Part shown: one piece after another, positions 13,470 to 48,091 of the stretch
How the letters are laid out: each line of letters begins with the position of its first letter
How positions within the stretch are numbered: the first letter of the stretch is position 1
Source of the DNA: Longimicrobiales bacterium
Lineage (GTDB): Bacteria > Gemmatimonadota > Gemmatimonadetes > Longimicrobiales > Gaopeijiaceae
DNA length: 64,000 nt
Reading direction: 5' to 3'
Assembly (NCBI GenBank): GCA_965248195.1
Contig: CBDFIQ010000002.1
Span: 2,368,001-2,432,000, forward strand
Made by a program: the position numbers and the translations under genes
Notes under the pieces: generated by a model
What the model saw: only the letters and a program-made list of their open reading frames with translations
The model's database searches: none
Told to the model about the DNA's origin: nothing

Positions 13470-14486
13470 TCAACGGTTCTCGGGAGTCCAAAACTGGAGA
13501 GCGGCCGAGCTCGTATCGGCGCTCCGACGTATTCCGTGGCCGACAAGGTTGAAAATGACCCTGTCCACCCGGGCCTCGATGCTCGATCGGTCGTCGTCGA
13601 ACACGTCCAGCGTCAGGGGCTGCCGGCCACCCCGCCCTCGGCGATACCGAAGAGCTCCGCCGCTTACGTGATAGCTCCCTCGCTCGAAGATCCTGGCCAC
13701 CAACGCACCCGAAACAGGCGGATCGAGGGTCCACACTTCGGAGTGTCCGCCCAGATCCATTCCGCAGGACCGTGGCCCCGATACCCGCCCCGTCAGGTCC
13801 GCCCGCCGCCATCCATCTGCCGTCAGGATCAGAACCGAGTCCTTTACGGGATTAGCCGTCCGCTCTCCACGGTAGGCCACGACAATATTTCCGGGCTCGC
13901 TGCGCCACTCACACACCGGCCCCCATCCACGAAAAGCCCGGAGTGACAGACTGTCGGGCGCCGGACCGATCCAGTCCCTTCCCCTCACTCCCGCCCGAAG
14001 TTCTTTCCCGATCACGATCGCCGCGAGACGTCGAGCCGACAGTAGATCCATTTCGGACCTCAATCTGGACGCGACGGTTTGTTGATGGGCGAGAGCACGC
14101 CAGGCAAACGAGATTACCACGAGCCCCAGAAGCAGAGACACGAGCACCTCCACGACCGTGACGCCGTAACGCCTAGAAGGCCGTTGAAGGAGTACAGTGG
14201 GCCGCGTTGCGGATGCCACGGTCCTAGCTCCTAGGCGGAGCGACGACGCCATAGCCGTAGCTATGGCTAGGAACTCCAACAACGGAGATGGGGCCGTGCC
14301 ACCGCAACCCTTCAACTTGTAAGGTCATGCCCTTCATGTTCGTGGGCACAGGGCGGTTGTGCGGTTGATCCTGCGTCTCTCCTCCTCGCCGTAGCGTTGC
14401 TACGCCTCGTCGTCGTTCCTTGTCTGAACGCGCACAAGCGCCCTGTGCGCGACCCGCTGTACTCCTTCAACGGCCTTCCTGAACAT
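13470..14486 (-). pseudogene. PilW-like minor pilin, 5' end interrupted by a 303-bp repeat element (may still be expressed from an element-borne start at TTG 14315 or ATG 14252)
   Basis: RRYG|VTVVEVLVSLLLGLVV prepilin motif; native ATG at 14486 is separated from the body by 14176-14478, which has 3 in-frame stops; removal gives MFSRRYG|VTVVE. Confidence 0.72.
14176..14478. mobile_element. Structured non-autonomous repeat (MITE-like), copy 1, 303 bp
   Basis: Terminal inverted repeats GAAGGCCGTTGAAGGAGTACAG / CTGTACTCCTTCAACGGCCTTC (22 bp perfect, about 31 bp with 2 mismatches); near-identical to 29295-29615 and 32744-33133. Confidence 0.9.
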
Positions 14487-14805
14487 CCGGTTGGTCCAGG
14501 CTCAGGCCCACGGACACACTGGCGCCGGGTCCACCTTGGAAGGTGACAGTGACGAGCCCGTCCCCCTCACGCGTCCAGAGGAGCAACCCCTTTTCAGTTT
14601 CGATCGAGCCCGGCCCACCCCAACCCGTGAATGAAAGTGAGTCAGCCAGCCACTCCACCGCCCGGGATGCGGATTCCAACGCGGCGGCCGCGAGGAGCGT
14701 CCTTTGGGCCTGCAGGGTCATCGCCAAGACACCCAGTATTCCCACCTCGAACACGACGAGAGCGACGGTGATTTCCACGAGGCTGAACCCGCCCCGGCCC
14801 CTCAC
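14467..14805 (-). CDS. PilV-like minor pilin
   Basis: MRGRGG|FSLVEITVALVV..VGILG; the stop TGA is supplied by the repeat terminus. Confidence 0.8.
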   Translation of the reverse strand: MRGRGGFSLVEITVALVVFEVGILGVLAMTLQAQRTLLAAAALESASRAVEWLADSLSFTGWGGPGSIETEKGLLLWTREGDGLVTVTFQGGPGASVSVGLSLDQPDVQEGR

Positions 14806-15230
14806 TCCCGCCGGATCCGTCCATAGGCCGAGATGATCAATCGGGCGACTGCTGATCCGCGGGTGAGCGTGACCGAACTAGCAGCCATACGCCCCAAGCC
14901 CGACGCGTCGAAGTGGAGTTCGACCGTGGGACGTCCACCGGAGAGCACCAGCTCTGTTCTCCAGGTCGCTCCAATGTCCACCCGGTGCAGTAACTCTCCC
15001 TTGGCCTCGATCCTGATCTCGGCGGGATTTCGGACGACGATCAGGCTCGAGCCCCCTCGCCGGAGCGCTTCGGCGCGAGCCCGTGTGATCAGTCCAACGA
15101 GCTCCTCCCGCGCGCCTGTCACCGAAAGACGCTCCCGGACGCTCCGGCCCACTGGAAAAGACAGGCTTGCCGCCAGGGCCAGGAGTGCCAGAACTCCCGT
15201 GAGTTCGAAAAGAGTGAAGCCGCGACGCAT
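14802..15230 (-). CDS. FimT/FimU/GspH-like minor pilin
   Basis: MRRG|FTLFEL, ARAEALRRG, F-ASG, ISAYGRIR C-terminus. Confidence 0.82.
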   Translation of the reverse strand: MRRGFTLFELTGVLALLALAASLSFPVGRSVRERLSVTGAREELVGLITRARAEALRRGGSSLIVVRNPAEIRIEAKGELLHRVDIGATWRTELVLSGGRPTVELHFDASGLGRMAASSVTLTRGSAVARLIISAYGRIRRE

Positions 15231-15283
15231 GGACCGACGTTACCGGCGCTCCCCGGGCGCCGGAATGCCGCGTTAGGCCAAAC

Positions 15284-16639
15284 TCAACCCAGTCCGTAGT
15301 CCTGTATTTTGTAGCGGAGGGCACGCGGGGAAAGTTCGAGCAACCCCCCCGCCTTCGACCGGTTCCCGCCCGTACGCTCCAAGGCCCGCTGAATGAGCTG
15401 CCGCTCCAGCTGTGCGGAGCGGCGCTTCACGGAAAGGTCGTCCGACTCATAGATCGCCTCGACCGTCACCCCCATATGACCCAGCCGAGCGGAAAGCGCC
15501 TCCTCCGCCAGCTCCGTGCCTTCGGAGAGAACCGCGGCCTGCTCGAGCACATTCTCCAGCTCACGGATATTACCCGGCCACGGATAGGCGAGCAGAAGCT
15601 TCATCGCAGCCGGCGAGATCGCGGCCACCTTCACGTTGAGCCGCTGCCTCAGGCGCTCGAGCAAGTGCTGGGTAAGGTCCGGAATCGCCTCCGTCCTCTC
15701 CCGCAGGGGCGGGAGGTGGATGGGAATCACCGCCAGCCGATAGTAGAAATCTTGGCGGAACTCGCCCGATTGCACCGCCGCCCGCAAGTCGATGTTCGTG
15801 GCCGAAACGATCCGGACGTCTACCTGAGACGTGGCGGTCCCTCCCAGACGCCTGATCTCACCGTCCTGCAATGCACGCAGCAACTTCACCTGAAGGGGGG
15901 TTGGCAGCTCCCCGACTTCGTCGAGAAACAGTGTCCCGCCCTCGGCCGCCTCGAACAACCCGGCCCGATCATTTTCGGCCCCAGTGAACGCTCCACGCAT
16001 GTACCCGAAGAACTCGGATTCAAGCAGCGTTTCGGGAATGGCACCACAATTGACTGGAACAAAAGGTTTGTCGGCCCGGTCGCTTTCGCGGTGGATCAGC
16101 CGGGCCATTAACTCCTTGCCGGTACCAGACTCCCCGGTCAGCAACACGGGGGACCGATGGCGGGCGACCTTGGTCGCCGTCTCCAGAGCCCGAATCATGG
16201 TCGGTGAGCGAGCCACGATGTCCCCGAGCCGACGTTCCGCGCTCACCTCGGCGCGCAGCCGCCCGACTTCCGTCCGAAGCTGCTCCCTCTCCTCCGCCTT
16301 CCGGATCGTAAGGAGGACCTCGTCGGCGCCGAACGGCTTGGGTAGGTAGTCGTATGCGCCCTCCTTCATCGCCCCGATGGCAAGCTCCATGTTCCCATAC
16401 GCGGTCATCACGATGACGAGCGCTTGACCCTCCGCCTCACGATACTTTGCGAGGAACTCCAAGCCGTCCATTTGGGGCATACGTACGTCGCAAAGGATAA
16501 TCTGGGGGTTCTCATTCGCGGCTATCGCCAGGCCTTCCTTGCCATGCGCCGCGAGGAGCGCGTCGTGTCCGCCCTCCTCGAGAATGAGTGTCAGAGATTT
16601 GCGAAGTCCCTGATCGTCGTCGATCACGAGGACCTTCAT
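15284..16639 (-). CDS. Sigma-54-dependent response regulator (NtrC/AtoC family)
   Basis: REC domain, [32 protein letters not shown], Fis-type HTH. Confidence 0.95.
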
Positions 16640-17949
16640 TCGACCTCCTGTCTCTCTATTGCCTCAGGGTACCGAGCTCCAACGGCTCCGTACTCCTCCA
16701 AAGTGGGTTCCTTCGCCGTGATCGCCTCCGGCAGCCGAACCTCGAAGCGCGCTCCCCCCTCGGGTGCGCTCTCCACGTCGATACGCCCACCCATTCCCGC
16801 GACGAGGCGGGCGGAAATGAAAAGGCCCAAACCGGTTCCCTTCCCGGGCTCCTTGGTGGTGTAGAAGGGATCGAAGACGCGGGTCTGATCGGCGGAAGGG
16901 AGACCTGTTCCGTTGTCGGACACCGCCACGACGACGACCTTCCGGGCGGTGTCGAGGGTGCCGAGAGCCTCTGCCGAGAAGGCGCGAGCCACCCGGCGCC
17001 TGTGCAAATAATTGACGCCGGGCGGATCATCTCCCCGTCTCTGGAGGGGGTTGGCCGCCGCACCATCCTCCGACCAAAGAGCAACCTCGATCTTGGGGGC
17101 GTCCAGGCCTTTCACCGCATCCGTCGCGTTCAAAAGCAAGTTCACGAGCACCTGTTCCAGGTGCCGAGGGTCCATCAAGACAAGAGGACATGCGTCATCG
17201 AGGGTCCAGGAGTGTTCGATCCGTCCGAGTTGGCCCTGGTTCTCCAACAGATCGCGCACACCTTCGATGACTTCATCGACCCGAACCGGAGTGATCTCGT
17301 CGGGCTGGGGCCGGGCAAAATCGAGAAGTCCTCGCACGATGCCATCGATGCGCTGTGCCTCGGAACGGATCGACTCCAGTAGCTCCGGATCTCCCTGGTC
17401 CGCCTCGATGCGACGGAGGGCGACGTCGGCATACCCGATGATCGCGGTCAGCGGATTTCCGACCTCGTGCGCGATGCCAGCCGCCAGAGTTCCCACCGAA
17501 GCCAGCCGGGCAGCCTGGATGACCTCGTTGCGAGCTTCGACCAGCTTCACGTTGGTATCATCGAGCGACCGGACATTCTCGGCCAAGACCTGCTGGCCGG
17601 CGATGAGCCGGTCGGCCATCGCATTCACGCTCTCGGTGATACTCCTGAGCTCGAGGCCATTGGGGATTTCGAGCCGGTGCCGGTAGTCTCCGTCGGCGAT
17701 CTGTTTCACTCCCAGGACCAACTCGTCCACCGGCTCCAGGAGATTCTTCTTGAGGGCCCAGCCTCCGAACGTGAGAACGATAACCAGGTCCACCGCCACG
17801 ATGACCAGAATGAAGACCGTAGCCTCGCCCGTGGAACGGAGAAAGGGAAGCACCAGGCTGATGGCGATACCCAAAAGGAGGGTGACTCCCCCGAATAGAA
17901 TCCCCAAGGAAACAAGCAGCTCACGACGAAGGGGTGTCGGGGAACTCAT
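16636..17949 (-). CDS. HAMP sensor histidine kinase
   Basis: 2 closely spaced TM helices, HAMP, AHEVGNPL H-box, NLLLNA, DNGTG, FDPFYTTK, GTGLGL. Confidence 0.93.
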   Translation of the reverse strand: MSSPTPLRRELLVSLGILFGGVTLLLGIAISLVLPFLRSTGEATVFILVIVAVDLVIVLTFGGWALKKNLLEPVDELVLGVKQIADGDYRHRLEIPNGLELRSITESVNAMADRLIAGQQVLAENVRSLDDTNVKLVEARNEVIQAARLASVGTLAAGIAHEVGNPLTAIIGYADVALRRIEADQGDPELLESIRSEAQRIDGIVRGLLDFARPQPDEITPVRVDEVIEGVRDLLENQGQLGRIEHSWTLDDACPLVLMDPRHLEQVLVNLLLNATDAVKGLDAPKIEVALWSEDGAAANPLQRRGDDPPGVNYLHRRRVARAFSAEALGTLDTARKVVVVAVSDNGTGLPSADQTRVFDPFYTTKEPGKGTGLGLFISARLVAGMGGRIDVESAPEGGARFEVRLPEAITAKEPTLEEYGAVGARYPEAIERQEVE

Positions 17950-17969
17950 GTTCGTATGGCGCCTGAGGC

Positions 17970-18007
17970 AAAAAAGTGCGAACGCCGGAGGTTCTCTCCT
18001 CCGGCGT
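17970..18007 (-). terminator. Probable terminator downstream of the pilin pair
   Basis: ACGCCGGAGG/CCTCCGGCGT 10-bp stem followed on the minus strand by TCGCACTTTTTT. Confidence 0.6.
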
Positions 18008-18072
18008 CCTCGATGAAGACTACTTCTAACTTGTGCAGGGGACGGGTCCGCTGCAACGATGGGGATTTGGCC

Positions 18073-18462
18073 CTAACGCGTGCAGGCGATGACCCCCTCC
18101 TCCGGACCGGGGTCCCCGCCGGCGGCCGCCGCATTCCCCTGGTACATGCCACAGTGCTCCGTGGGGAGACCCGCATGGGAGGCAGTCGCAGCCCAGCCCG
18201 AGCCGGTAGCCTCGTTGATCGTGATGGTCACTCCATCACTCACGGACCCGCCGACGAGGGCGACTGAAGCGCCGTAGAAAAAGTTGGAGTTGTGGTACAT
18301 CTCCTGCTGCGTCGCCAAGTTCTTGAGATCGCTCTTCATCGAGGTAAGGAATGCGTTCTCTCGCGCCGAGGAGAACTTCGGAACGGCGACGGAAGCCAGG
18401 ATGCCGATGATCACGATGACGATGAGGAGTTCGACCAGCGTAAAGCCTCTTTGCATGCCCAT
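18073..18462 (-). CDS. Type IV pilin, second paralog
   Basis: MGMQRG|FTLVELLIVIVIIGILASVAVPKF; GAGGG RBS at 18470-18474; C-terminal Cys pair. Confidence 0.9.
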   Translation of the reverse strand: MGMQRGFTLVELLIVIVIIGILASVAVPKFSSARENAFLTSMKSDLKNLATQQEMYHNSNFFYGASVALVGGSVSDGVTITINEATGSGWAATASHAGLPTEHCGMYQGNAAAAGGDPGPEEGVIACTR

Positions 18463-18575
18463 GCTCAATCCCTCTTTTCGTCTCATGCCTGGAGTGGAAG
18501 CGAGAGAGCGTGGCCCGGGAAAGGCCCGAGCCACGCTCTTCGACCGAAAGCACACGGTGCCTCCGAAGTCCTGCC

Positions 18576-18971
18576 TTATTGCGTGCAGGCCATCTCACCC
18601 GGACTCCCCGGTACGGCGGCGCCAAGTGACACCGCAGGCCCGGTCCCATAGTAGATCGCGCAGCCCTCGGTCGCGGCCAACGCTAAGTGCGTCGACGTCG
18701 CGTTCCAACCGGTGGAGGTGCCCGTCGGAGTGACGGTCACGCCGTCGGACTGCACGAAGCCGAGCGACGTGACGTTGGCGGTGTAGGAATACTCGTCCGA
18801 ATAGTAGATCTCCTGCTGGCTAGCAAGATTCTTCAGGTCGGACTTCATGGCCGCAAAATAGGCCTTCTCACGCGTCGCAGAGAACTTCGGAATGGCGATG
18901 GCCGCCAGGATTCCGATGATCACGACCACGATGAGGAGCTCGATCAGGGTGAAACCCTTGTTGTCCCGCAT
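18576..18971 (-). CDS. pilA: Major type IV pilin
   Basis: MRDNKG|FTLIELLIVVVIIGILAAIAIPKF; AGGAG RBS at 18980-18984; sigma-54 promoter upstream; C-terminal Cys pair. Confidence 0.9.
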   Translation of the reverse strand: MRDNKGFTLIELLIVVVIIGILAAIAIPKFSATREKAYFAAMKSDLKNLASQQEIYYSDEYSYTANVTSLGFVQSDGVTVTPTGTSTGWNATSTHLALAATEGCAIYYGTGPAVSLGAAVPGSPGEMACTQ

Positions 18972-19025
18972 GATGATAACTCCTAGATAGGATGACACTT
19001 GTGAACATTCGATATGCCCCCTGAG

Positions 19026-19041
19026 TGCAAACGCTGGTCCA
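19026..19041 (-). promoter_or_regulatory. Sigma-54 (-24/-12) promoter of pilA
   Basis: Minus strand TGGACCAGCGTTTGCA, GG-N10-GC, 55 nt upstream of the pilA ATG; PilR-like activator nearby. Confidence 0.75.
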
Positions 19042-19115
19042 AAAGTCGGCATGACTTCTTAAGTGGTTGTGGTTTAACACTTTGTACCAATATCACTCGA
19101 CGTCCTTCGTCCCCA

Positions 19116-21020
19116 CTATCGACCGTCCGGTGACGGATTTTGCGAAGCATTGGCATTTTCAGAGCTTCTTAGCACAGCCTGAAACCTGTCAATTTGGCCG
19201 GGTTCATCCGGAGGTCGCACCCTGGTACGGGCGCTGTCGAGCGATTCGAGCGCTCTAGCCGTGTCTCCCGACTGGGCGTACGCTTCCGCGAGCCAGAACC
19301 ACTGCTGCCAGCGGTGTCCTTCACCCGCTTCGATCGTTCGGCGGCGGGCTTGGACCGACTCTTCCCAGCGGCCCTCCCGCGCCAAGGAACGGGCCAGGAG
19401 ATGGTTCGCAACCAAGTCTTGGGACCCGAAGAAGGCGATGGCAGCCTCGGCCGCTTCGATCGCGCCCGGATAATCCCCTTCGCCGTAATGGATGCCGGCG
19501 AGAAGGCGGGCAGCGATCCCTTCATCCGGGTATTCTTCCCGAGCCCGACGGAGAAGGCCCTTGGCGGCGTGCGTCTGTCCGTTGACGAGGAGCTGCCGCC
19601 CCACCTCCACGAGGACAGCGTAGTTTCCGTGCAAGAGACTGATCGTAATTCGGTAGGCGGCGTTACCCGCCTTCCTGTCGCCGATCATATACTGTGCGTC
19701 TCCGAGGAGCCACTGCGCCCGTCCTGACTCCGGGTGCTCACGGATCAGAGTTTCGAAAACGCTGACGGTGTCTCGCCAAGTGGCGTTCCGGGCGACGGTT
19801 CGAAGCGACATGAGCATCAAAACGAGGATCAGCGTCGCCTCGGCCACAAGGCGACGCTCTTTGTACAGCTCGCCCCCGATCCACGCGAATAGCGCCACGA
19901 ATCCGACCGACGGCAGATAAAACGTGCGCTCCGCGAGGAGGACCCCGGAGAGGAAGAGCACGTTCGAAACCGGCGACAACGTGATCACGAGCCACAGGAC
20001 ACCGAATGAGAAGAGACGAGGAGGAGTACGGGCCACCCCGAGCGTCTGCCTCCCCCACAGACGCAGGGCCAATCCGAGCGTCCCCAGGAGGAGAAGAGCC
20101 CCTAGCATACCACTTCCTGTCCAGCCGAGGGCGAGAGGAATTACGGCCGGCGCATAGTCGGCGCTCAAGTCGAGAGGGAAAAAAAGCAGCCGGAAGTAGT
20201 GAGGCCAGGTCGACGCAACGGTCCAGATTCTCGGGACTTCCTCCTGCAAGAGCCTCGCACCCAACGGGGGCAACGGGCTGGCCAGGCTGCCAAGCACCAC
20301 AAAGCGAGCCGTCAGAATGAGCGCAGCAGCGGCCGTCAGACTTACGTAGATCGCCCACCGGCGGCGAACGTAGGAGAGCGCCTCCTTGACCCCGACATCG
20401 TCACGCGCCCCGTCAAGTAGGAAGAGGACCCCGAGGAGCGTGATGGCGCTCTCCTTCGCTAGGAAGGCGAGCACGAACAGGAGCGTAATGGCTGTGCCCG
20501 GCAGAAGCGTGATCCGCTCTCCCGCCCGTAGAAAGATCAAGCATGCGCCCAGATAAACCGCCGAGGAGAAAATCTCGGCCAACCCCACGACGTTCGCCAC
20601 GGCCTCGACATGGACGGGATGAACCGCGAAGAGCAGTCCCGCGACGAACGCGAGCGCAAGGGGCGCGAGTTCGGCCAGCACCAGCACCACGAGCGCGGTA
20701 ACGACCCCGTGTAGCAACACGTTCGTCACGTGGAACATCGCGGGATTCTCGCCCCAGACCGCCCATTGGATGCCGTAAAGCGCCGTCGTCACCGGTCGCC
20801 ATAGTCCCAGAGCCCGGCCGAACTCGTTCGGCCAGTAGGGAGAGGCCATCGCCTCCGGCAGAGTGTCGAGATCCTGGATCCGCGTATTCTGGACAATGAG
20901 AGGGAGGTCGTCGAAGGCGAAGTCGTTGAGGACGCTGTTCGCCGATAGAAGGACCGCGGCCGCACCCGCAAGGAACGCGGCCGAGCGGACCGACCGGAAG
21001 GGAGAATCCCACGTCCTCAT
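19116..21020 (-). CDS. TMTC-like GT-C membrane glycosyltransferase (putative protein O-mannosyltransferase) with C-terminal TPRs
   Basis: FAFDD loop-1 motif, WRPVT, LFAVHPVHVEAVANVVG, KE, LSADY, AERTFYLPS, RNATW, TPR helices. Confidence 0.85.
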   Translation of the reverse strand: MRTWDSPFRSVRSAAFLAGAAAVLLSANSVLNDFAFDDLPLIVQNTRIQDLDTLPEAMASPYWPNEFGRALGLWRPVTTALYGIQWAVWGENPAMFHVTNVLLHGVVTALVVLVLAELAPLALAFVAGLLFAVHPVHVEAVANVVGLAEIFSSAVYLGACLIFLRAGERITLLPGTAITLLFVLAFLAKESAITLLGVLFLLDGARDDVGVKEALSYVRRRWAIYVSLTAAAALILTARFVVLGSLASPLPPLGARLLQEEVPRIWTVASTWPHYFRLLFFPLDLSADYAPAVIPLALGWTGSGMLGALLLLGTLGLALRLWGRQTLGVARTPPRLFSFGVLWLVITLSPVSNVLFLSGVLLAERTFYLPSVGFVALFAWIGGELYKERRLVAEATLILVLMLMSLRTVARNATWRDTVSVFETLIREHPESGRAQWLLGDAQYMIGDRKAGNAAYRITISLLHGNYAVLVEVGRQLLVNGQTHAAKGLLRRAREEYPDEGIAARLLAGIHYGEGDYPGAIEAAEAAIAFFGSQDLVANHLLARSLAREGRWEESVQARRRTIEAGEGHRWQQWFWLAEAYAQSGDTARALESLDSARTRVRPPDEPGQIDRFQAVLRSSENANASQNPSPDGR

Positions 21021-22845
21021 CGTTGGCGGACGGGGGCGGGTGCCCCGTCCCCGCGGGCCTGGCGCTCCTGGCTCGCAAGAACATCAGCACGCTGAGAGGC
21101 GGCGTCGGCTTCTTCGGAGCGGCCGGCCAACTCCATGAGCTCGCTCATGCGACGCCATTCCTCAGAATCATCGTCGGCCACACCGAAGGACGCCCATCGC
21201 GCCCGAATGGCCGCGTCGTAGTCTCCCTTCGCCACATAACTCTCGGACACGAGCTTCCACAGGTCTCGGTCGGATCCAACGAGCGACAAGCCCTGGAGCG
21301 CCACCGCGTGTCCTTCCCGGCTCCGGCCCTGGTTCAGCCGCTGTTCAGAGAGCACCTGCCATGCGACGGGGTGCGTGGGAAACAACTCGATGGCGTGGAC
21401 GAGCAGCGACTCTGCCTCGACCCACCGCTCCCCCCGCCCATAGAAACGCGCGACCTCCACGAGCAGGCTGTATCCCTCCGGAGCCAGCTCAAGCGCCGTC
21501 TGGTAATAACGATCCGCCTCCTCGTACTCGCCTACGTTGTCGAGACCCTGGGCGCGTGCCCTGATCGCCATCAACGACTCCGGGTGCTCTTCTCCAAGCG
21601 TCGTCAACATCGTGAACGTGCTCATCCACGAGGGGTTTCTGAGCGCGGTCCGCACCATGAAGGCGCTACACAGGACCCCCGCGCCCACCAAGAGAATGCC
21701 CAGGGATGTCCTGCGCTCACGGGCCGTCCACGACACGACTCCCGCGGCCACGAAGGCAAGCCCGACGGACGGCAGGTAAAGCGTTCGCTCAGCCAACAAC
21801 ACGCCCGTCGGGATGAGTAGGTTGGTAACGGAAGGATCGCGATGCCGAACCAGGCGATGCCGAGCGCCACCAGCCGTTCCCTGGGCCAAAGGAAGATGAC
21901 GGCCGCAGCACCACCAAGAATCGTGAGTAGGCCCAGGATCACATCGGGCCCCCATGTCAACGCTGGAAAGAGTACCGCCGGCGCGTAGTCCACCACGAGG
22001 TCCAGCGGGAACACCAGGAGCCGGAGATAGTGTGGCCAGACCGCCAGAGATGTAAGGATTCTTTGGCCCGCCGAGAGACCCACGAGAGCCGGTGCGGGTA
22101 CTTCGCCCGAAACCGAACCCAACATCAGGAATCGGGCGCCCAAAAACGCCGCCAGAAGGGCGGCGGTCAGGAGGAACACCGGCAGATCGGTCCGAACACG
22201 GTCGCTTACACGCTCATCGCCGGTCCGCACCAATGCTATGAGAACCAGCAGCGCCGGGAGCGTCACTGCCATTTCTTTGGAGCCGAGACCCAGCACATAG
22301 AGCGCCCCGATGCCGAGGAGGCGGGCGGCCCTCCAGGACGGTGAAAGCCCCCGCCCCTTCAGGAAGAGCAGACACGCCCCCAGCACGAAGAGCGCCGAGT
22401 ACAACTCGGAACGCCCCACGACGTTTGCCACCGCCTCGCTATGGACGGGATGTGCGGCAAAGAGCGCACCCCCGACGAGAGCCGGAAGTGTGGCCGACAG
22501 CGGTAGAATCAGTAAGAACACCACCAGCGATACAGCAGTGTGAACGGCTAGGTTCACGAGGTGAAAGCCCGCCGGATGGCCGTTCCACAGCCTCCATTCC
22601 AACGCGAAGCTCGAAAGCGTAACCGGCCGATAGAGGCCCGCACCGCTAACCGCCTGAGGCCAATAGGCGGAGGTCAGCACCTCGACGACCCCTCCCTCGG
22701 CCACGACGGAGCGTCCCACGATGATGGTATTGTCGTCGTAGGCGAAGCCGTTGAGCACGGAGTTGGCGTACGCCGCCACCGCCACGAACAGCACCAGAAG
22801 CGCGGCGCGCCACGGCGGGATGGCAGAAAGCTGCTTAAGGGTCAC
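21017..22845 (-). pseudogene. Second TMTC-like GT-C/TPR glycosyltransferase, split by a 1-nt frameshift near 21830
   Basis: ORF 21622-22845 carries FAYDD, YRPVT, HPVHSEAVANVVGR, SKE up to GIAILP; ORF 21017-21955 continues VTNLLIPTGVLLAERTLYLPS plus TPRs in another frame. Confidence 0.85.
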
Positions 22846-22863
22846 CTGGATGCGGAGTCCGGA

Positions 22864-23757: not shown

Positions 23758-23845
23758 GGGGATCGAATCCTCGATAATTTAGAAGTTTCAGGCACGGGCC
23801 CATGGGCGCCGAAAACCGTAACTTCCACGCGGAGCATGAGGCTGA

Positions 23846-25207: not shown

Positions 25208-26883
25208 ACGGCCGCCTGTTGTTTCGTCGCAGAAGCGACATCCGTGCCCGGCAACAGAACCACGAATCGAGCTCCACCCCCAGCCACCTCCTCAGCGTAG
25301 ACGGCGCCACCGTGCGCCTCGACGGCACGATGCACCACCGCCAGGCCGAGACCGCTCCCACCTTTACGCGTGGTATAAAATGGGGCGAAGATGCGCCCGA
25401 TATCCTCGGGTGGAATCCCCGGTCCGGAATCCTGAACGCTCAAACACACCGGCTGGGAAACGGTGGATCCAGGTAGCCGGTCCTCGACGGCCCGATTCTC
25501 GACGGAGACCCGGACGGTACCCCCGGGGCCGCTGAACTGAACCGCGTTGAGGATCAGGTTGAAGACCAGGCGGTGAAGGAGATCCGCGTCCCCCGGTAGG
25601 GTCAGGCGGCCTTCGAGGCCCTGCTCGTCGATGCGAATCCCTGCTTCGCAGTCAGGATGTTGTTTCACCAATGTGATGGCTTGCCTGACCACGCGGGTAA
25701 AGTCCACCCTGGCCTTCGCGCTGAGGCGCATCACCGAGAAATCGAGAAATTCGTTGAGCAACCGGCTCAGGCGATCCGATTCGGCCAGAACCAGCCGTTG
25801 GAGGAGCGCACGATCCTCGACGGGAAGCGTGGGGCTGTCGAACTGTTCCACGGCGCTGCGTATCGAAGCCAACGGATTCTTGATTTCGTGGGCGAGGGAA
25901 GCACTCAGTTCAGCCACGGCCTCGAGTCGTTCGTTTCTGCGATTTAGGGCCTGGATACGCTCCAGATCCGTGATATCCTGAAAGATCGCCGTGACGGATG
26001 GGCCTTCCCCCTCGCGACTTTCGAGCAGGGTTGTGCTGATGCCCAGCACCAGGTTCCCCGACGCTCTCTTGACGGCCGTCGTTTGGCGGCTGACAGGGCG
26101 GCGCCCGTCGATGCTCCTTCGGAGCGCCTCGGCAAGCCCCGGCGCCAGCTCCTCTACCACGTCCAAGATGGGGGCGCCGCGCCACTGCTCGAAGCTCAGA
26201 TCCAAGAATCGTTCGCCAGCTCTATTGAGGTACCCGAGTCTGCCGCCATCGACGAGGGTAAGCACACCTGCGGAGATGTTCGTGAGAATGTCCCCCGTAT
26301 CGAGCCGCAAGCGGACGAGTTCGGACTGGACTTCTCCGAGCGCGAGCCCGGTGCTTTGGACGCGGTTCCCCAGCCAACCCGTGAGGAGAGCAACGACGGC
26401 GAAAAGCCCGATCTGTAGCCCAACGGTATACAAGGGTAGGGTCTGCGGACCGCCCCATACGAGGCTCGCGAAGTAAAGAATGGAGGAGAGGGCCCCGATG
26501 AGGAAGGCTCCCGACAGGGGCAATAGAAGAGCCCCCTCTGTCATCACCAAGAAATAAAGGGGGGCGAAGGCGACGTCGCCGCCGCCCGACGTGATATAGA
26601 CGACGGTCGTGACAAGCGCCGCGTCGAGAATGACCTGGCCGTACATGAAGTTCCGGCCCACCGGGCGGCCCCGCACTTCGGTGTGCCACACGGAGGCGAG
26701 GGTGAGCGCCAACGTGGCCAAAAACATGAGCGTCGCTATGCGCGTGGCCTCCGCGGGAGCGGAGAACCAGGCCACCATTATGCCGACGAAAATTCCAAGG
26801 GCCAGAGTCATTCGGCCGACGTAGACCCAACGAAGGAGTCGGTTTCTGTCGAATTCGTACTTCTTTGGAGTCTCCGGCCTCAA
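25204..26883 (-). CDS. pilS: Sensor histidine kinase, PilS-like
   Basis: About 6 N-terminal TM helices, PAS, FQDIT, LAHEIKNPLASI, FYTTR, GSGLGL. Confidence 0.82.
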   Translation of the reverse strand: MRPETPKKYEFDRNRLLRWVYVGRMTLALGIFVGIMVAWFSAPAEATRIATLMFLATLALTLASVWHTEVRGRPVGRNFMYGQVILDAALVTTVVYITSGGGDVAFAPLYFLVMTEGALLLPLSGAFLIGALSSILYFASLVWGGPQTLPLYTVGLQIGLFAVVALLTGWLGNRVQSTGLALGEVQSELVRLRLDTGDILTNISAGVLTLVDGGRLGYLNRAGERFLDLSFEQWRGAPILDVVEELAPGLAEALRRSIDGRRPVSRQTTAVKRASGNLVLGISTTLLESREGEGPSVTAIFQDITDLERIQALNRRNERLEAVAELSASLAHEIKNPLASIRSAVEQFDSPTLPVEDRALLQRLVLAESDRLSRLLNEFLDFSVMRLSAKARVDFTRVVRQAITLVKQHPDCEAGIRIDEQGLEGRLTLPGDADLLHRLVFNLILNAVQFSGPGGTVRVSVENRAVEDRLPGSTVSQPVCLSVQDSGPGIPPEDIGRIFAPFYTTRKGGSGLGLAVVHRAVEAHGGAVYAEEVAGGGARFVVLLPGTDVASATKQQAAV

Positions 26884-26934
26884 ACCGATCTCCCCTCAGA
26901 ATGAATCGACCGTCTAACTTGGGACGCCTTTCCC

Positions 26935-26963
26935 ACGCTATTACTCGCCGTGGCACAGTGCAA
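26935..26963 (-). promoter_or_regulatory. Candidate sigma-70 promoter for pilS-pilR
   Basis: Minus strand TTGCAC-N17-TAGCGT; a similar TTGCAC-N18-TAACTT lies upstream of pilB (37705-37734). Confidence 0.4.
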
Positions 26964-27025
26964 CACTTCTATTTGGCGTTTTGCGAAAAACTTGCCGAGG
27001 AACGGAAGGCTCCGGCGGTCGCGTC

Positions 27026-27664
27026 TCAGATGTCCGGCCGTGGGAGGACTCGGACCTCCCCCAGGAGCGCGTAGGCGAACCCCCAAAGCCGTCCAACCGG
27101 CCGGAGCCCCTCACTGTCCACGAACGCCGATCCCTCTACGATGTGTAGCTCGGGATCCAAACGAACACCCCTCACCTCGCCGAGCACCAAACCACCGGCG
27201 TCGCCCAAGTCCAAATACTCATGAAGCTCGCATTCAAGGACCGCAGGACAATTCGCAACATATGGCGCCTCAACGGTCTCCGCCTCCGCCACGGAAAGTC
27301 CAGCGAAAGCAAACTCATCACCCTCCGGAGGTAAGTTGGCCGCCGTCCGGTTCATCGCCTCGAGTTGGGCCTCCGTGACGACGTTCACACAGAAGGCGCC
27401 TTGGTCCAAGATGTTGCGGAGTGAGTCCTTGGCCACTCCTCCCCGTGTCCCGATGGACAAGCTGACGAGCATGGGCGAGGACGCCACCGCCGAGAAGAAG
27501 CTGAAAGGAGCCACATTGAGAACGCCGGTGGCGCTCCGGGTGGAAACCCAGCCGATCGGGCGTGGCACGACGAGGGACGTGAGAAGCTGGTACCGTTCAC
27601 GGCCATCGACCGAGTCGGTACGGATTATTCGGTGCCGAAGGGGCCCTTCAGGGTCGCCGGCCAA
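27026..27664 (-). CDS. Flavin reductase family protein (DIM6/NTAB)
   Basis: VVPRPIGWVST, NVAPFSFF, KDSLRNI, LECEL, PVGRL. Confidence 0.9.
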   Translation of the reverse strand: MAGDPEGPLRHRIIRTDSVDGRERYQLLTSLVVPRPIGWVSTRSATGVLNVAPFSFFSAVASSPMLVSLSIGTRGGVAKDSLRNILDQGAFCVNVVTEAQLEAMNRTAANLPPEGDEFAFAGLSVAEAETVEAPYVANCPAVLECELHEYLDLGDAGGLVLGEVRGVRLDPELHIVEGSAFVDSEGLRPVGRLWGFAYALLGEVRVLPRPDI

Positions 27665-27675
27665 CCTCTATGCCC

Positions 27676-28422
27676 CTAGTCCGCGGGTACCGTTAGGAGC
27701 TGACCGGCGTAAATGCGGCTGCCTCGGATATTGTTGGCGGCCCTGAGCTTCGGTACCGTCGTCCCGTGACGGCGGGCGATGGCCCAGAGCGAATCACCAG
27801 CCCGAACCATATAACGTGACGGAGCCGTAGCTCGGTTTCCGGAAACGGCGGAAGCCAACACGTCGCTGACGTAAGCCGCGTAGCGTTCTGGAAAGACGGC
27901 CACATGATAATGCGACGGCCGCCGTTCCCTCGTTGCTTCCAGCACGCCTGCCGCCTCGAGGTAGAGGAGGGTACTCTCCAACCAGTACCGGCAAACGGAG
28001 TTCAAACTCGTCCGAAAATCAACCGCCATGCCCGTGGGATGAGCGGAGAGAGTGGAGGCGTTGCGGGGCTGCTCGCTCAAAGGACGGGTGAGGCTCGTGA
28101 CGACCAACTCCTCGCCACAAGCCCACCGGTGCTGCGCCCCCAGACGTTGCACGAAAAGGTTCACCTCTGGACGGCCGTAGGGGAAAGTCACGTCGTGAAG
28201 CACGAAGTCCCGACTACTCCTCAACCGGACAAGGTAGCCCGCATCGACAAACTGCTGAACATGTGCGCGTGTCTGTAGGAAGGTGAAGTTATGGTCCTCC
28301 GCGTGCACATACGCTCGGTTTAGGGAAGCCTCGGAGCCCCGAAGCGCCTGCCCTTGTACCTGACCAAAGCCGGCCGCCAGGAAAAGCGAAAGCCAAACCA
28401 GCAGGCTCATTCGTCGCACCAT
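27676..28422 (-). CDS. Secreted DUF5715-like (DD-peptidase fold) protein with C-terminal LysM
   Basis: Signal peptide; VTSLTR, SAH..G.AVD, HYHV; YMVRAGDSLWAIARRHG...N.I...IYAGQ.L LysM. Confidence 0.8.
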   Translation of the reverse strand: MVRRMSLLVWLSLFLAAGFGQVQGQALRGSEASLNRAYVHAEDHNFTFLQTRAHVQQFVDAGYLVRLRSSRDFVLHDVTFPYGRPEVNLFVQRLGAQHRWACGEELVVTSLTRPLSEQPRNASTLSAHPTGMAVDFRTSLNSVCRYWLESTLLYLEAAGVLEATRERRPSHYHVAVFPERYAAYVSDVLASAVSGNRATAPSRYMVRAGDSLWAIARRHGTTVPKLRAANNIRGSRIYAGQLLTVPAD

Positions 28423-28541
28423 TGCTACCCTCTCGAGGATTGGAGTCCCACTCGGATCGAACCACGTGCCGCCAGCCTATGTGTAAACATATGTATTGCG
28501 AAACACAAGGATTCCGTCATGCTCCTCAACCCACGAACGAC

Positions 28542-29162
28542 TCACCCCCGGGCATCGGAGTAGTTGGCCGCAACAACGTCCCAATTGACTACGTTCCACC
28601 ACGCGGAGACGTAGTCGGGTCGCCGGTTCTGATAGTTCAGATAGTAAGCGTGCTCCCAGACATCCACCCCGAGAATCGGGATGAATCCCCCGGAGAGCGG
28701 ATTGTCTTGGTTCGCGGTCGCGGACGCGTTGAGGTCTCCGGTGGGTCCAACCGTCAGCCAGCCCCAGCCCGAGCCGAACTGCTTCGCGGCGGTGGCGCCG
28801 AGAGAGGTCTTGAGGTCCTCGAACGATCCGAAGGCACCGTCGATGGCCTCCGCCAACTCTCCGGATGGCGTATCCGCACCGCCGGGAGCCATGATCGCCC
28901 AGAACAACGTATGGTTTACGTACCCGCCTCCGTTGTTTCGCACGGCGTTACGAATGGCCTCGGGCAGGTCGGCCAACCCCGCGAGCAGCTGTTCTCCCGA
29001 ATGACCGTGTAAGTCCGCATACCCTTCGAGGGCGGCGTTCAAATTGTTGGTGTAGGCCTGATGGTGCTTCCCGTGGTGGATCTCCATCGTACGTGCGTCG
29101 ATGTGTGGCTCCAGGGCGTCATGGTCATATCCCAGTGCGGGCAGTTCGAACGGATATCCCAT
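28542..29162 (-). CDS. sodA: Mn/Fe superoxide dismutase
   Basis: [28 protein letters not shown]. Confidence 0.95.
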
Positions 29163-29172
29163 TCTTATCTCT

Positions 29173-29204
29173 CCTATGGATCGGCGGGCCTATGGATCGG
29201 CGGG
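29173..29204. repeat. Perfect 16-bp tandem duplication at the sodA RBS
   Basis: CCTATGGATCGGCGGG x2. Confidence 0.9.
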
Positions 29205-29294
29205 TTGCTCGATAGGCCGCCCGGTCACCGCAATGGCGCCGCGGTCGGACGGCTAACCGGATTGTACCCTACTTCGATTCCCCTTCGCAAATGG

Positions 29295-29615
29295 GAAGGC
29301 TGTTGAAGGAGTACAGTGGGCCGCGTTGCGGATGCCACGGTCCTAGCTCCTAGGCGGAGCGACGACGCCATAGCCGTAGCTATGGCTAGGAACTCCAACA
29401 ACGGGGGCACCACGCGCAGCGTGGTCGGGGCCGTGCCACCGCAACCCACAAACATGCAAGGTCATGCCCTAAATGGTGGAGGGCACAGGGCGGTTGTGCG
29501 GTTGATCCTGCGTCTCTCCTCCTCACCGTAGCGTTGCTACGCCTCGTCGTCGTTCCTTGTCTGAACGCGCACAAGCGCCCTGTGCGCGCCCCGCTGTACT
29601 CCTTCAATAGCCTTC
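29295..29615. mobile_element. Structured repeat, copy 2, 321 bp, flanked by AAATGG direct repeats
   Basis: TIRs GAAGGCTGTTGAAGGAGTACAG / CTGTACTCCTTCAATAGCCTTC; AAATGG at 29289-29294 and 29616-29621. Confidence 0.9.
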
Positions 29616-29678
29616 AAATGGAAGACGCGGTAAACTCTACGCGAATCCCTGAACGTCACTCTTCCGACATCACAAGCC

Positions 29679-30890
29679 ATGGCACCGGACGAATTTCGTC
29701 CACCCCGACGGATCCTGCTGGTCGATTGCGACGCGTTTTACGTTCAGGTGGCACGCCTCGAGGATCCCGAGGGTGCGGGGAAGGCAGACTTACTCCTCGT
29801 CGGCGGCTCCCCCCGGGGACGTGGCGTCGTCACATCCGCATCTTACGGGGCACGCCGGTTCGGTGTTCGGTCCGCGATGCCCACCGCCCAAGCCCTCCAC
29901 CTGTGCCCGGACGCGATCGTCGTGGGCGTCCCGCGGCGGGCGTGTAGTCAAAAGAGCCGCGAGATCAGATCCTGCCTAGAGAGGCTCGCACCCGTCGTGC
30001 AGGCCGCATCGATCGACGAGTTCTACTTGGACCTCGCGGGCACCGAACGTCTTTTCGGCGAACCGCTGGAAGCGACGGCCCACCGCATACGCGAAGCCGT
30101 CCTCGAGGCGACCCGCATCTCGGTGTCCGTCGGAGGTGGAAGTCGTCGAATGATCGCCAAGCTCGCCTCCGGTAGGGCCAAACCCGGAGGCGTGCACATC
30201 GTCCCGCCGGGCCACGAGGCAGATTTCATGAGGGGGCTGGACTTGGCTGAAATTCCAGGCGTGGGCCCGGCGCTGGTCGAGGCGCTGCGAGTGAGGGGGC
30301 TGGTTCGCATCGAAGACGCTCTGGGACTCAAACAGGAGTGGCTCGAACGGTGGTTCGGGGCCCGTCGGGGGCACTGGCTCTACCGTCGCATGCGAGGACT
30401 GGATGCGTCGAGGGTGGATCCACGGGAGCCCCGTAAGTCCATCAGCTCCGAGCGCACGTTCTTCCAGGACCTGAATTCGGACGAAGACCTGGAGCGTGTG
30501 CTCCTACGCCTCTGCAGATCGGTCACTCACACCCTCCGCAAGGCCGGCCTTCGGGCCCGAACCATCACCGTCAAGCTCAGGGACCGGGACTTCAAGACCC
30601 GTTCACGCTCACAGACGGTGGCGGAGCCGCTTGAGACCGACGCCGCCACGTACCGGATCGCCCGAGAACTCTTGGCGGAATTGAGAAGCCGACGCAGGAC
30701 TCCCGCACGGCTCCTCGGCGTGGGCCTGACCAAATTGGGCTCGGGAGACGGTCCCGTCCAAATCGGACTGTTCGAGGAGAAGGCTCGCTTGGAAGGCCAC
30801 CGAGAACGGACGCTCGACCACGTCGTGGACGGTCTGCGCCAGCGCTTCGGGGACCGCGTGGTCCTGCCCGGTCGCATCATCGGGGATTGA
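29679..30890 (+). CDS. dinB: DNA polymerase IV (Y family)
   Basis: DCDAFY, SASY.AR.FGV.SAMP, SIDEFYLD, AKLAS..KP.G, KSISSERTF. Confidence 0.95.
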   Translation: MAPDEFRPPRRILLVDCDAFYVQVARLEDPEGAGKADLLLVGGSPRGRGVVTSASYGARRFGVRSAMPTAQALHLCPDAIVVGVPRRACSQKSREIRSCLERLAPVVQAASIDEFYLDLAGTERLFGEPLEATAHRIREAVLEATRISVSVGGGSRRMIAKLASGRAKPGGVHIVPPGHEADFMRGLDLAEIPGVGPALVEALRVRGLVRIEDALGLKQEWLERWFGARRGHWLYRRMRGLDASRVDPREPRKSISSERTFFQDLNSDEDLERVLLRLCRSVTHTLRKAGLRARTITVKLRDRDFKTRSRSQTVAEPLETDAATYRIARELLAELRSRRRTPARLLGVGLTKLGSGDGPVQIGLFEEKARLEGHRERTLDHVVDGLRQRFGDRVVLPGRIIGD

Positions 30891-30915
30891 CCGAAAGGCG
30901 TCGGAGGCCTGGCCT

Positions 30916-32616
30916 CTAGACCTTACCGCTGACCTTCCAGGGCTTTCTTTCAAAGTAGTCGTCGGTCAATTCCTTGATCTTTCCGGAAAGCAGGACCAAC
31001 GCGATCAGATTGGGGAGGATCACGATCCCTAGAGCAATATCTCCCAATTCCCATACGAGATTCAGAGCAACCAACGCCCCCACGTAGTGCATGATCAGGT
31101 AGACGACCTTATACGGTAGTACGGCCCCTTCACCGAATAGGTAGATCGCACAGCGGTCCCCGTAGTAGCTCCACGCTATGGCAGTGGAGATGCCGAAGAG
31201 GAAGACCGAAAGAATCACGATGTAATGGCCCCAATCGCCGAGAGGGGAGAGTCCCCTTCTGAAGGCATTCGTCGTGAGCGGTGCTCCACTCTCGACCGCC
31301 ATTCCCCAGAGCGACGTATAAACCGTACCGTCGTCTCCCACGGCCTCGCCTCGGGCCGGAAACACCGAACCGGTAAACGCCTGCGTCCTGCCCTCGTCCG
31401 TGGAAAACATTTCCACTGCCACTTCGTGCCACGCCACTAGAGCCGCACTCCCAGCAACGTGTGCTCCGCCTTGGATTCGGATCTCGGCGGGCAGATCGAC
31501 GTCTTCATATCCCGCCTCTGCGTCTCCGGAGACCCAACTGAGATCACCACCCTCGAGTGTGATTTCGGTGGGGAAGCGCTCATCGTATACGCCCGTCATT
31601 ACGATCACGAGCGCCGTCATCGTGACGATCACGATGGTGTCGATAAAGGGCCCGAGAAGTGCGACTACGGCCTCGGAGACGGGCTCTTCCGTCTTCGCGG
31701 CCGCGTGGGCGATGGGCGCGGACCCCTGACCCGCCTCATTGGAGAAGAGGCCTCGATTGACGCCCCAGATCATGGTGACGAGGATGGCGCCCACCCCAGT
31801 ACCCGCCACTCCAGCCGTGGGATTGAACGCCTCGCTGAAGATCGTGGTGAAGGCAGGGACCACCTCTCCCAGGTTCATGAAAACGATGAGCAGGGCGGAC
31901 AGCACATAAACGGCAGCCATGAACGGGGCCAGAATACTCGTGATGCGACCGATGCGGGTTATACCTCCCAGAATCACTGAGGCCACGATCGTGACCGTGA
32001 TCGCACCCGTGATCCACACGGGAATGCCAAACGCGGTCCCGGCGGTATCGGCCACCGTGTTAGCCTGAATGGCATTCCCCGTGAAGAAAGCCGTGAACCC
32101 CAGCATTCCGGCGAAGAAAACGGCCATCCACTTCCAGTTCGCCCCCAGCCCGTGCTCGATGTAATACATGGGTCCGCCGGAGACGGTGCCCACCACCTTG
32201 GCCGCGTCTTGGTGCACCGAGCGGTAATGCATGGACAGAGCGACCTCGGCATACTTGGTGGCCATTCCGAGGATCGCGGTCAGCCACATCCAGACCAAAG
32301 CACCGGGGCCTCCCCAGTGAACGGCCAGCGCGACGCCGGCGATGTTACCGATGCCGACTGTGGCGGAAAGTGCGGTCGAGAGCGCTTGGAAATGGGAGAC
32401 ATCGCCGGTGCTTTCGGGATCATCGTAGCGGCCCGTGGCAACCGCGACGCCATGGCCGAAGTGCCGAAGCTGGATAAACCCGAGGCGGAGCGTAAGGAAC
32501 GCGCCCGCCCCGATGAGGGCGATAACCACGAGGGGAATCGTCGAGTCCCCCACAGGAATCCCCGCCTCCCATACGAATACTCGGACGGCGGTGACGAGGT
32601 TCTCGAGAGTTTCCAT
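30916..32616 (-). CDS. Alanine/glycine:cation symporter (AGCS family)
   Basis: SHFQAL.TAL.ATVGIGNIAGV, GGPGA..WMW, GGPMYYI, RGLFSNEAGQGS, WSYYG. Confidence 0.93.
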   Translation of the reverse strand: METLENLVTAVRVFVWEAGIPVGDSTIPLVVIALIGAGAFLTLRLGFIQLRHFGHGVAVATGRYDDPESTGDVSHFQALSTALSATVGIGNIAGVALAVHWGGPGALVWMWLTAILGMATKYAEVALSMHYRSVHQDAAKVVGTVSGGPMYYIEHGLGANWKWMAVFFAGMLGFTAFFTGNAIQANTVADTAGTAFGIPVWITGAITVTIVASVILGGITRIGRITSILAPFMAAVYVLSALLIVFMNLGEVVPAFTTIFSEAFNPTAGVAGTGVGAILVTMIWGVNRGLFSNEAGQGSAPIAHAAAKTEEPVSEAVVALLGPFIDTIVIVTMTALVIVMTGVYDERFPTEITLEGGDLSWVSGDAEAGYEDVDLPAEIRIQGGAHVAGSAALVAWHEVAVEMFSTDEGRTQAFTGSVFPARGEAVGDDGTVYTSLWGMAVESGAPLTTNAFRRGLSPLGDWGHYIVILSVFLFGISTAIAWSYYGDRCAIYLFGEGAVLPYKVVYLIMHYVGALVALNLVWELGDIALGIVILPNLIALVLLSGKIKELTDDYFERKPWKVSGKV

Positions 32617-32628
32617 TACGCATCCCTT

Positions 32629-32674
32629 GAAGGCTATTGAGGAAGTACAGTGGGCCGCGTTGCGAATGCCACGG
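32629..32674. mobile_element. Truncated left end of the structured repeat (46 bp)
   Basis: GAAGGCTATTGAGGAAGTACAGTGGGCCGCGTTGCGAATGCCACGG matches the first 46 nt of the full copies. Confidence 0.85.
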
Positions 32675-32743
32675 AGGAAAGCGGAGAAGATTGTGTGGTG
32701 AGGTCACCTGGGCAAGGTGATCCGAAGGACCTCGGGTCAGTAA

Positions 32744-33133
32744 GAAGGCTGCTGAAGGAGTACAGTGGGCCGCGTTGCGGATGCCACGGTCCTAGCTCCT
32801 AGGCGGAGCGACGACGCCCTAGCATTCGCTACGGCTAGGAGCTCCAACAACGGAGATGGGGCCGTGCCACCGCAACCCACGAACGTGTAAGGTCATGCCC
32901 TAAATGGTGGAGGGCACATGGCGGTTGCGCGGTTGATCCTGCGTCTCTCGTCGTCGCCGTAGAAGGACTACGACTCCTCGTCGTTCGTTCTTCGCCTTCG
33001 GCTCAGGTGCCGCGGAAACCAATGTCGATCGCCGAACATCAAGTCCGCGACGTTGTCTGAACGTGCGCAAGCGCGGGGCACCCACGCCGAAGGCGTGGGT
33101 CGCGCGACCCGCTGTACTCCTTCAGCAGCCTTC
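32744..33133. mobile_element. Structured repeat, copy 3, 390 bp, with internal insertions
   Basis: TIRs GAAGGCTGCTGAAGGAGTACAG / CTGTACTCCTTCAGCAGCCTTC; same arms and centre as copies 1 and 2. Confidence 0.9.
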
Positions 33134-48060: not shown

Positions 48061-48091
48061 CGCCACCCACTGTACCCATTCAACAGCCTTC
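48061..48091. mobile_element. Solo terminal remnant of the structured repeat
   Basis: CGCCACCCACTGTACCCATTCAACAGCCTTC versus element end CGCGGCCCACTGTACTCCTTCAACAGCCTTC. Confidence 0.7.

Follow-up and report, generated by a model that had tools for sequence, protein, structure and literature searches.

How can a non-coding repeat that carries no transposase spread through bacterial genomes, and what is its conserved interior for? The question is raised by a stretch of 64,000 nucleotides from Longimicrobiales bacterium (GCA_965248195.1, contig CBDFIQ010000002.1, positions 2,368,001 to 2,432,000; hereafter the window, whose own numbering is used throughout). It holds three full copies of a two-armed palindromic repeat (copy 1, 14176-14478; copy 2, 29295-29615; copy 3, 32744-33133) and two remnants (32629-32674 and 48061-48091), all at the places given in a preliminary description made from the DNA letters alone. 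The reading favoured here, with a probability of roughly 0.55, is that the element is a non-coding repeat resembling a MITE (a miniature transposable element with inverted repeats), moved in trans by IS5/IS1182 transposases of insertion sequences (IS), and that its arm is a strand-specific single-stranded DNA (ssDNA) fold serving the element's own spread. Across the source genome (G000; 4.86 Mb, 63% GC, 91.8% complete), BLAST extended the three copies to 39 merged loci, and a profile search gave 25 hits to the core between the ends, 24 of them near full length. The elements of this genome are 301-406 bp long; 20 copies have ends of one type (type A) and four have ends of another (type B) around the same core, and many solo ends occur besides. 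An open reading frame (ORF) that starts inside copy 1 has no family match. The window was said to encode no transposase, in the element or elsewhere, and none was found in the 15 ORFs scanned out of the 188 listed for it.

The conserved interior is best described from copy 1 (plus strand, 303 bp). The terminal stems of about 31 bp are real and 90-94% complementary, and a CATG lies at the middle of copy 1, so that the halves measure 152 and 151 bp as noted earlier. Arm 1 (14204-14310, 107 nt) has the plus strand as its purine strand; positions 2 and 13 of this arm are C·C mismatches, tandem G·A pairs are present, and its G·A zipper and tip hairpin (14237-14277, plus strand) place the start of the tip loop 80 nt from the left end. 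In arm 2 (14344-14450, 107 nt) the purine strand is the minus strand, such that the two arms face opposite strands. Here three conserved C·C mismatches are spaced 11-12 nt apart, and the zipper (14374-14419, minus strand) consists of four tandem G·A/A·G steps with single base pairs between them, followed by a tip hairpin 80 nt from the right end. Between the arms lies an optional centre (14311-14343, plus strand), which measures 33 nt between CCC and GGG, or 37 nt with the borders drawn in the preliminary description; in many relatives a CCC-loop-GGG mini-hairpin takes its place.

Each arm forms an irregular, rod-like duplex of about 50 bp with covarying pairs. The predicted folding energy of copy 1 is -170.3 kcal/mol for the plus strand (z -11.9) and -173.1 kcal/mol for the minus strand (z -9.9), and 0 of 100 shuffles were as good for either strand. 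Covariation had been named beforehand as the check on the fold, and 18/33 and 20/33 pairs are changed on both sides (0/500 shuffles; slid controls 1-7), although shared descent of the sequences inflates these counts and those of the mismatches, so that they overstate independence. In the seed alignment of arm 2 the four tandem G·A/A·G steps are present in 13-15 of 15, and the single pairs between them flip from C-G to G-C; conservation extends to an apposed G·G in the basal loop. At positions outside the search pattern, G·A/A·G is found in 109/113 of the metagenome matches listed (three positions) and C·C in 100, 101 and 96 of 113, the six zipper pairs inside the pattern being conserved by construction in these rows. 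Read from the complementary strand, the G·A pairs turn into T·C and the C·C mismatches into G·G, so that for each arm a good fold is predicted on just one of the strands. The earlier proposal that the element acts as a folded single strand, either strand offering an intact arm, is supported by the covariation and by mismatches that suit the purine strand only. The arms do share a core read on opposite strands: a covariance model made from arm 1 alone detects arm 2 there in 16 copies of the source genome, weakly (E 0.007-0.025, rough calibration). When double tandem-G·A hairpins were sought elsewhere in this genome, 21 of the 23 non-genic hits proved to be this element. Rfam 15 gave 0 matches in the window at gathering score; the best hit of copy 1 had an E value of 4.6, and no ribozyme family was matched.

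The geometry of the arm is as constant as its pairing. The distance from the start of the tip loop to the arm's own end is 80 nt in 68/75 cases for arm 1 and in 63/76 for arm 2. Among the matches listed from metagenomes, 70 elements have both ends and represent many end types. In 54 of them, 62-67 nt separate the called end from the start of the zipper; of the other 16, 12 are shorter, the end call having stopped inside the repeat, and four are longer because of insertions or extra flanking symmetry.

The ends tell a different story from the core. They are ordinary inverted repeats of the IS5/IS1182 type, match those of IS in relatives and can be exchanged. The type-A end matches the IS L420 at 14/14 bases; L420 scores above the cut-off of the IS5-family model and just under that of the IS1182 model (262/270 bits). 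The left terminal inverted repeat of copy 1 (14176-14197, plus strand, 22 bp) is of this type, and its first 14 bases are those of L420 except for one change, which recurs in the right repeat (14457-14478, minus strand), a perfect mirror of the left. Type B resembles L075 (15/17 bases), which is above the IS1182 cut-off. Types C, D, E, F and G correspond to L088/L080/L076, L413, L480 (18/19), L096 and L101 (17/18), respectively. Judged by end sequence, one and the same core is bounded by ends that match no fewer than seven different IS5/IS1182-like elements. A one-armed form of the repeat has ends close to those of the IS630 elements L263 (17/18) and L258 (16/18). Other one-armed copies have ends with a 3-bp TNA duplication; for a related two-armed type, the best end match (15/17) is to an IS5 element. 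Several end types coexist in single genomes (G000, G026, G027, G034, G074, G094 and G153), and the repeat and a matching IS occur together in G031, G036, G066 and G113. B-ended copies are scattered over the core tree. The transposases of L420, L075 and L088 share only short stretches, at 26-45% identity. The core is not derived from these IS, 0 of the 40 IS loci tested holding it, and the element does not look like an internal-deletion derivative of IS5/IS1182. Every core with complete flanks that was inspected by eye lies between IS-like inverted repeats, and both ends of a copy tend, also by eye, to resemble one and the same IS end.

Two individual loci and a pair of solo ends deserve mention in this context. 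At L438 (G063:C46:1-180) a type-A IS5/IS1182 end has its start precisely at the CTAG beside a one-armed copy with IS630 ends, so that IS of this kind are able to use the junction of the element as an insertion site, which may be how end capture begins. In L009 (G002:C83:22028-22308) the left end is of type B and the right end of type A; the contig contains Ns, and this copy may be an assembly chimera. The source genome also holds two solo IS630-type ends of the one-armed family that lack an arm (C2:3242875 and C2:677002; L223, L228).

Non-autonomous mobility, proposed at the outset, is borne out by empty orthologous sites and by the match to real IS ends. For 52 of 53 copies in three sister species an orthologous site could be located in the source genome; three sites are filled, three hold an end remnant and 46 neither. 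The site of copy 1 is empty in G006 and G007, and G011 has a deleted copy with the same ends there. In four public runs near this strain, copy 2 is skipped in all four through a single joint (29292>29616), and copy 3 is skipped in two. The site of copy 3 is filled in G007 with another core variant. The neighbours are housekeeping genes: one of 75 scanned ORFs (146 neighbouring ORFs listed) contains a transposase fragment, and no recurring mobile enzyme is seen among the 75, reverse transcriptases, IS110 and other recombinases not having been searched for. At 16/24 scorable sites of two-armed copies, the filled site, the element itself aside, is 1-2 bp longer than the empty one. In most one-armed relatives a clean TA or TNA flanks the element on either side, and complete IS copies have CTA at both ends in 13/13.

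How could one core acquire so many ends? Changes in type-A ends are mirrored on both ends at 52/70 positions. Two species have six sites in common; of the 39 core columns there that are diagnostic for the species, 26 show in each species its own allele. One of these pairs is species-typical at 9/9 columns and has a non-TA junction in common, which suggests core conversion inside long-lived ends, though the copies may instead have inserted independently at hot spots. C·C and tandem G·A are poorly recognised by mismatch repair. It is rather improbable, though consistent with the mirrored ends, the homogenised cores and a mismatch spectrum of mostly G·A and C·C, that the arm has no function of its own and that fold-back repair or gene conversion simply erases repairable mismatches while sparing these two, constant length coming from in-register end exchange. 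Such a process does not predict that zipper sequence and spacing stay the same between unrelated stems and across two phyla, that arms 1 and 2 differ in sequence and yet both place their tips at 80 nt, or that the G·G apposition of the basal loop is conserved.

The loops and mismatches also bear on the nature of the folded strand. Side hairpins are optional and replace bulges at several sites. Of 40 distinct ones, all are closed by C-G; the triloops are GNA in 20/24 and the tetraloops GNNA in 12/16. Loops of the C-GNA-G and C-GNNA-G type are described as far more stable in DNA than in RNA (PMC13037366). The excess of G·T over A·C at paired columns that would be expected of an RNA was not found (53 vs 38; 14 vs 15); the raw counts (90 vs 90; 57 vs 143) are distorted by mis-register of the basal loop and were not used. 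As read from these loops and pairs, GNA loops and the missing G·U bias favour ssDNA over RNA; neither proves it. The side hairpin was also considered as a genome-wide repetitive extragenic palindrome (REP) and rejected, 6/7 strict hits lying within copies or remnants.

These observations can be joined in a mechanism, held at slightly better than even odds, in which a fold-back single strand presents and re-templates the end. Transient ssDNA, on the lagging strand or during transcription, would let one strand fold back so that its two ends formed, by pairing, a whole transposon end at the foot of a rod of about 80 bp. With the G·A and C·C mismatches the rod would stay stable on the purine strand, yet the duplex would fall short of a perfect palindrome. 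Were the folded strand repaired or copied, a change in one end would be mirrored in the other, so that one captured IS end could become a new pair. Two arms would make the rod available on either strand. The fold presumably acts in mobility. Because the transposases differ, a host factor is a likelier guess than the transposase for the reader of the zipper.

Several observations weigh against trans-mobilisation of an ssDNA-folding repeat, beyond the limits on the counts given above. One group concerns transcription. Two-armed copies are oriented with it: 18 vs 0 of 24 in the source genome, 57 vs 3 of 77 in four genomes, where co-directional flanks read the arm 2 purine strand first, and 14 vs 2 of 75 among the metagenome matches listed, the gene strands being taken from a codon-score heuristic. 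An orientation that follows transcription points to an effect at the RNA level or linked to transcription. This speaks for a rival explanation that we consider unlikely, in which an ordinary MITE, mobilised in trans, would have retained its arm for the RNA structure that it forms in host transcripts (stability, processing or read-through), allowing copies to lie within operons. A replication-strand cause was rejected as the weaker one in the source genome (about 19 vs 5, against 18 vs 0 for transcription); five copies there break the replichore rule yet follow the genes. Many copies abut or supply stop codons, and element sequence occurs in four RNA-library assemblies, from which strand, level, ends or a discrete transcript cannot be read. 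Co-transcribed MITEs are described as altering mRNA stability (PMC3184786). Seven of the 16 tetraloops are also GNRA. An RNA role is opposed by the GNA triloops and the lack of a G·U excess, and by the one-armed copies, which have no orientation bias (3 vs 3 of 13; 4 vs 4 of 43 among the matches listed). In addition, the favoured orientation reads the pyrimidine strand of arm 1, yet arm 1 is conserved for its purine strand, and the fixed distance to the transposon end is left unexplained.

The orientation bias presumably reflects host tolerance instead, as the disfavoured orientation would put the open C/U-rich strand of arm 2 and a -10-like motif of the centre before the next gene. In copy 1 this conserved motif, TAAGNT (14320-14325), has GTGCCR (14296-14301) 18 nt upstream, and the direction is from arm 1 to arm 2. 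The two motifs may form a putative promoter, "-10-like" being a label given by sequence. Short-centre copies are too few to judge the centre promoter as the sole cause of orientation.

A second group of adverse observations concerns the junctions. In two-armed copies identical 2-bp flanks occur in 11/76 against 12.0 in shuffled data, i.e., duplication is not above chance, and TA is present at only 56/152 element ends. Plain trans-mobilisation leaves this pattern unexplained. Insertion age may explain part of the missing duplication; in copy 2, the one clean same-species pair, the two extra bases are not a duplication. A junction made by host repair would also account for it. The arm can tentatively be regarded, at odds clearly below even, as a transposase-independent mobility cassette, which would combine fold-back ssDNA transposition, host-repaired junctions instead of duplication, and capture and mirroring of any TA-targeting IS end. 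The folded strand would then be an 80-bp rod that holds one transposon end at a fixed helical distance from a zipper read by a protein.

Nor was a cognate transposase found in the source genome (91.8% complete), although copy 2 is polymorphic. Models for the Y1/RAYT transposase (PF01797), DUF772 and IS1182 gave 0 matches there, and tblastn with six transposases of relatives gave no match. The genome's own IS5 of about 810 bp was rejected as a direct partner since its ends diverge after the first bases. That no matching DDE transposase was found, that junctions gain 1-3 bp which are not duplicated, and that GNA hairpin modules resemble the sites of single-strand enzymes (PMC13037366), could all be understood if the core were moved or copied by a dedicated single-strand enzyme (HUH/Y1, nuclease, recombinase or reverse transcriptase), with IS ends as passengers or former targets. 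This is very unlikely: a Y1 transposase is missing both from the source genome and from the 75 scanned neighbours, 74 of which lack any transposase family (with the limits of that search given above), the fully flanked cores inspected by eye all sit between IS-like inverted repeats, and one-armed relatives mostly have clean TA or TNA duplications. Finally, 13 of the 39 diagnostic columns are the same in both species, three of seven orthologous pairs are closer to each other than most paralogues are, side hairpins can break the outer stem of the arm, and copies lacking one arm persist.

The individual copies in the window differ in their surroundings and optional parts. Copy 1 is flanked by a PilV-like gene and a hypothetical gene, both on the minus strand, and the stop codon of the PilV-like gene falls inside its right end. 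By heuristic gene calls, the upstream gene's stop codon is provided by an element end, or lies against one, in about 12/24 copies of the source genome (e.g., window 14467-14805). Copy 2 (plus strand, 321 bp) lies between the divergent sod and dinB genes and is polymorphic in the species. Its optional side hairpin (29405-29426, plus strand) is of the GGYACC-stem-GNA loop-stem-GGTC type, has the loop C-GCA-G and replaces a 4-nt bulge of arm 1. Just upstream of sod (about 29173-29205) is a 17-bp tandem duplication that five relatives lack. Copy 3 (plus strand, 390 bp) lies between the genes for a HIT protein and a sodium:alanine symporter, both on the minus strand. The closure of the arms described earlier fails for arm 2 of this copy, whose closing stem is a variant and which an insert of about 65 bp and a side hairpin interrupt. 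The insert (32986-33054, plus strand) is optional and is common to two other copies of the source genome and to copies elsewhere; similar-looking inserts occur in the centre or in arm 1 in other genera (L429, L436, L446, L447 and L367), and by its sequence it is possibly a further small module. The side hairpin (33076-33101, plus strand; loop C-GAA-G), also optional, adjoins the right end. Where the left-end remnant lies (32629-32674, plus strand), four relatives also have remnants, which differ in length, and the solo end remnant (48061-48091, minus strand) lies upstream of dapF. The window further contains two pairs of direct repeats with 76-77% identity (18295-18447/18804-18956 and 20566-20647/22397-22478) inside neighbouring ORFs, which are probably paralogous genes. 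The source genome is rich in IS, with 342 merged repeat intervals of at least 450 bp, among which elements of about 1.39 kb and 1.58 kb dominate with tens of copies each.

Outside the source genome, the window DNA matches 34/61 relatives, and the arm model matches 91/150 sampled genomes of the family and 9/150 across the phylum. Exact matches to the type-A end in GTDB genomes lie in stretches that are all titled Gemmatimonadota (42/42), mostly Longimicrobiales. The exact pattern occurs in at least 120 metagenome stretches, and plasmids and viral contigs gave no match (the latter searched by the exact pattern); runs with a small share were not used as evidence of habitat. The one-armed relative of about 165 bp has the same zipper, and at two such loci the neighbouring proteins group with records named 'Deltaproteobacteria bacterium', a second phylum. 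The same deletion, from most of arm 2 to the right end, is found in copies of two genomes (L054/L149 in G011, and L070). In the two-armed copies L436, L441 and L447 (G094) and L020, the second arm has a form midway between those of arm 1 and arm 2, which shows that a single unit gave rise to both.

In the usual view, a MITE consists of two IS ends and an interior that it could do without. In the present element the interior is conserved and its geometry strict, and it is the ends that are swapped, from one transposase family to another and over no fewer than two phyla. Two questions thereby become testable with a substrate of 165-300 bp: how elements lacking a transposase compete for enzymes that other elements make, and how they survive when a partner IS dies out. 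If the folded single strand is indeed the active form, a further route would exist for elements of the DDE type, and a short module that raised trans-mobilisation would serve transposon tools.

The element matches no known Rfam family and no MITE described in the open-access literature within reach, as had been surmised, and that literature gave no account of this repeat or of one core between the ends of different IS families. It has the testable features of a MITE apart from a clear duplication: IS-like repeats, no transposase, short length, and empty and filled sites. Bacterial MITEs (RUP, ERIC, Correia/NEMIS, Nezha and IMU) resemble it as non-coding units of 150-400 bp with IS-like repeats and a long stem-loop, located near gene ends, with empty and filled sites (PMC3184786, PMC3733652), and the partner IS of Nezha also occurs in another species (PMC3184786). 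The cores of different MITEs are described there as showing no similarity (PMC3184786), whereas here one core with fixed geometry and strand-specific mismatches is shared between many IS5/IS1182-like and IS630 ends, and two-armed copies lack duplication above chance. The bcr1 repeat of the Bacillus cereus group likewise has a cruciform-like fold with compensatory changes and non-conserved genomic positions, but it is about 155 bp long and has direct repeats of 5 bp, and its fold is described as one of RNA, with neither end exchange nor a G·A zipper in the passage that describes it (PMC3184786). REP, REPIN and BIME repeats with RAYT share intergenic hairpins, an inverted arrangement and modular side hairpins (PMC3733652); the present element is ten times longer and has 22-bp IS-type ends. 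A REP origin was rejected: the GTAG/CGTC foot is not at its ends, and RAYT (Y1) is not in the source genome or the 75 scanned neighbours. The mini-hairpins d(GCGNAGC)/d(GCGNNAGC) of phage single-strand origins and N4 promoters have the C-GNA-G and C-GNNA-G loops seen in the side hairpins and the short centre (PMC13037366), but here such loops are optional parts of a transposon-ended repeat and are known from sequence. With the IS of Gemmatimonadota (L420, L075, L088, L413, L480, L096, L101, L263 and L258) the element shares the first 14-19 end bases and a TA/CTAG context; these IS5/IS1182-like and IS630 elements differ in lacking the core in 40/40 loci and in keeping CTA at both ends. Integron attC sites have the order RYYYAAC...GTTRRRY and lie in cassette arrays. 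An attC identity was rejected, as GTT precedes AAC in the stem and the arm, and the copies are dispersed among housekeeping genes. What is new in comparison with these systems is a conserved, strand-specific arm of fixed length, shared between the ends of many IS of at least two families and doubled so that each strand carries one.

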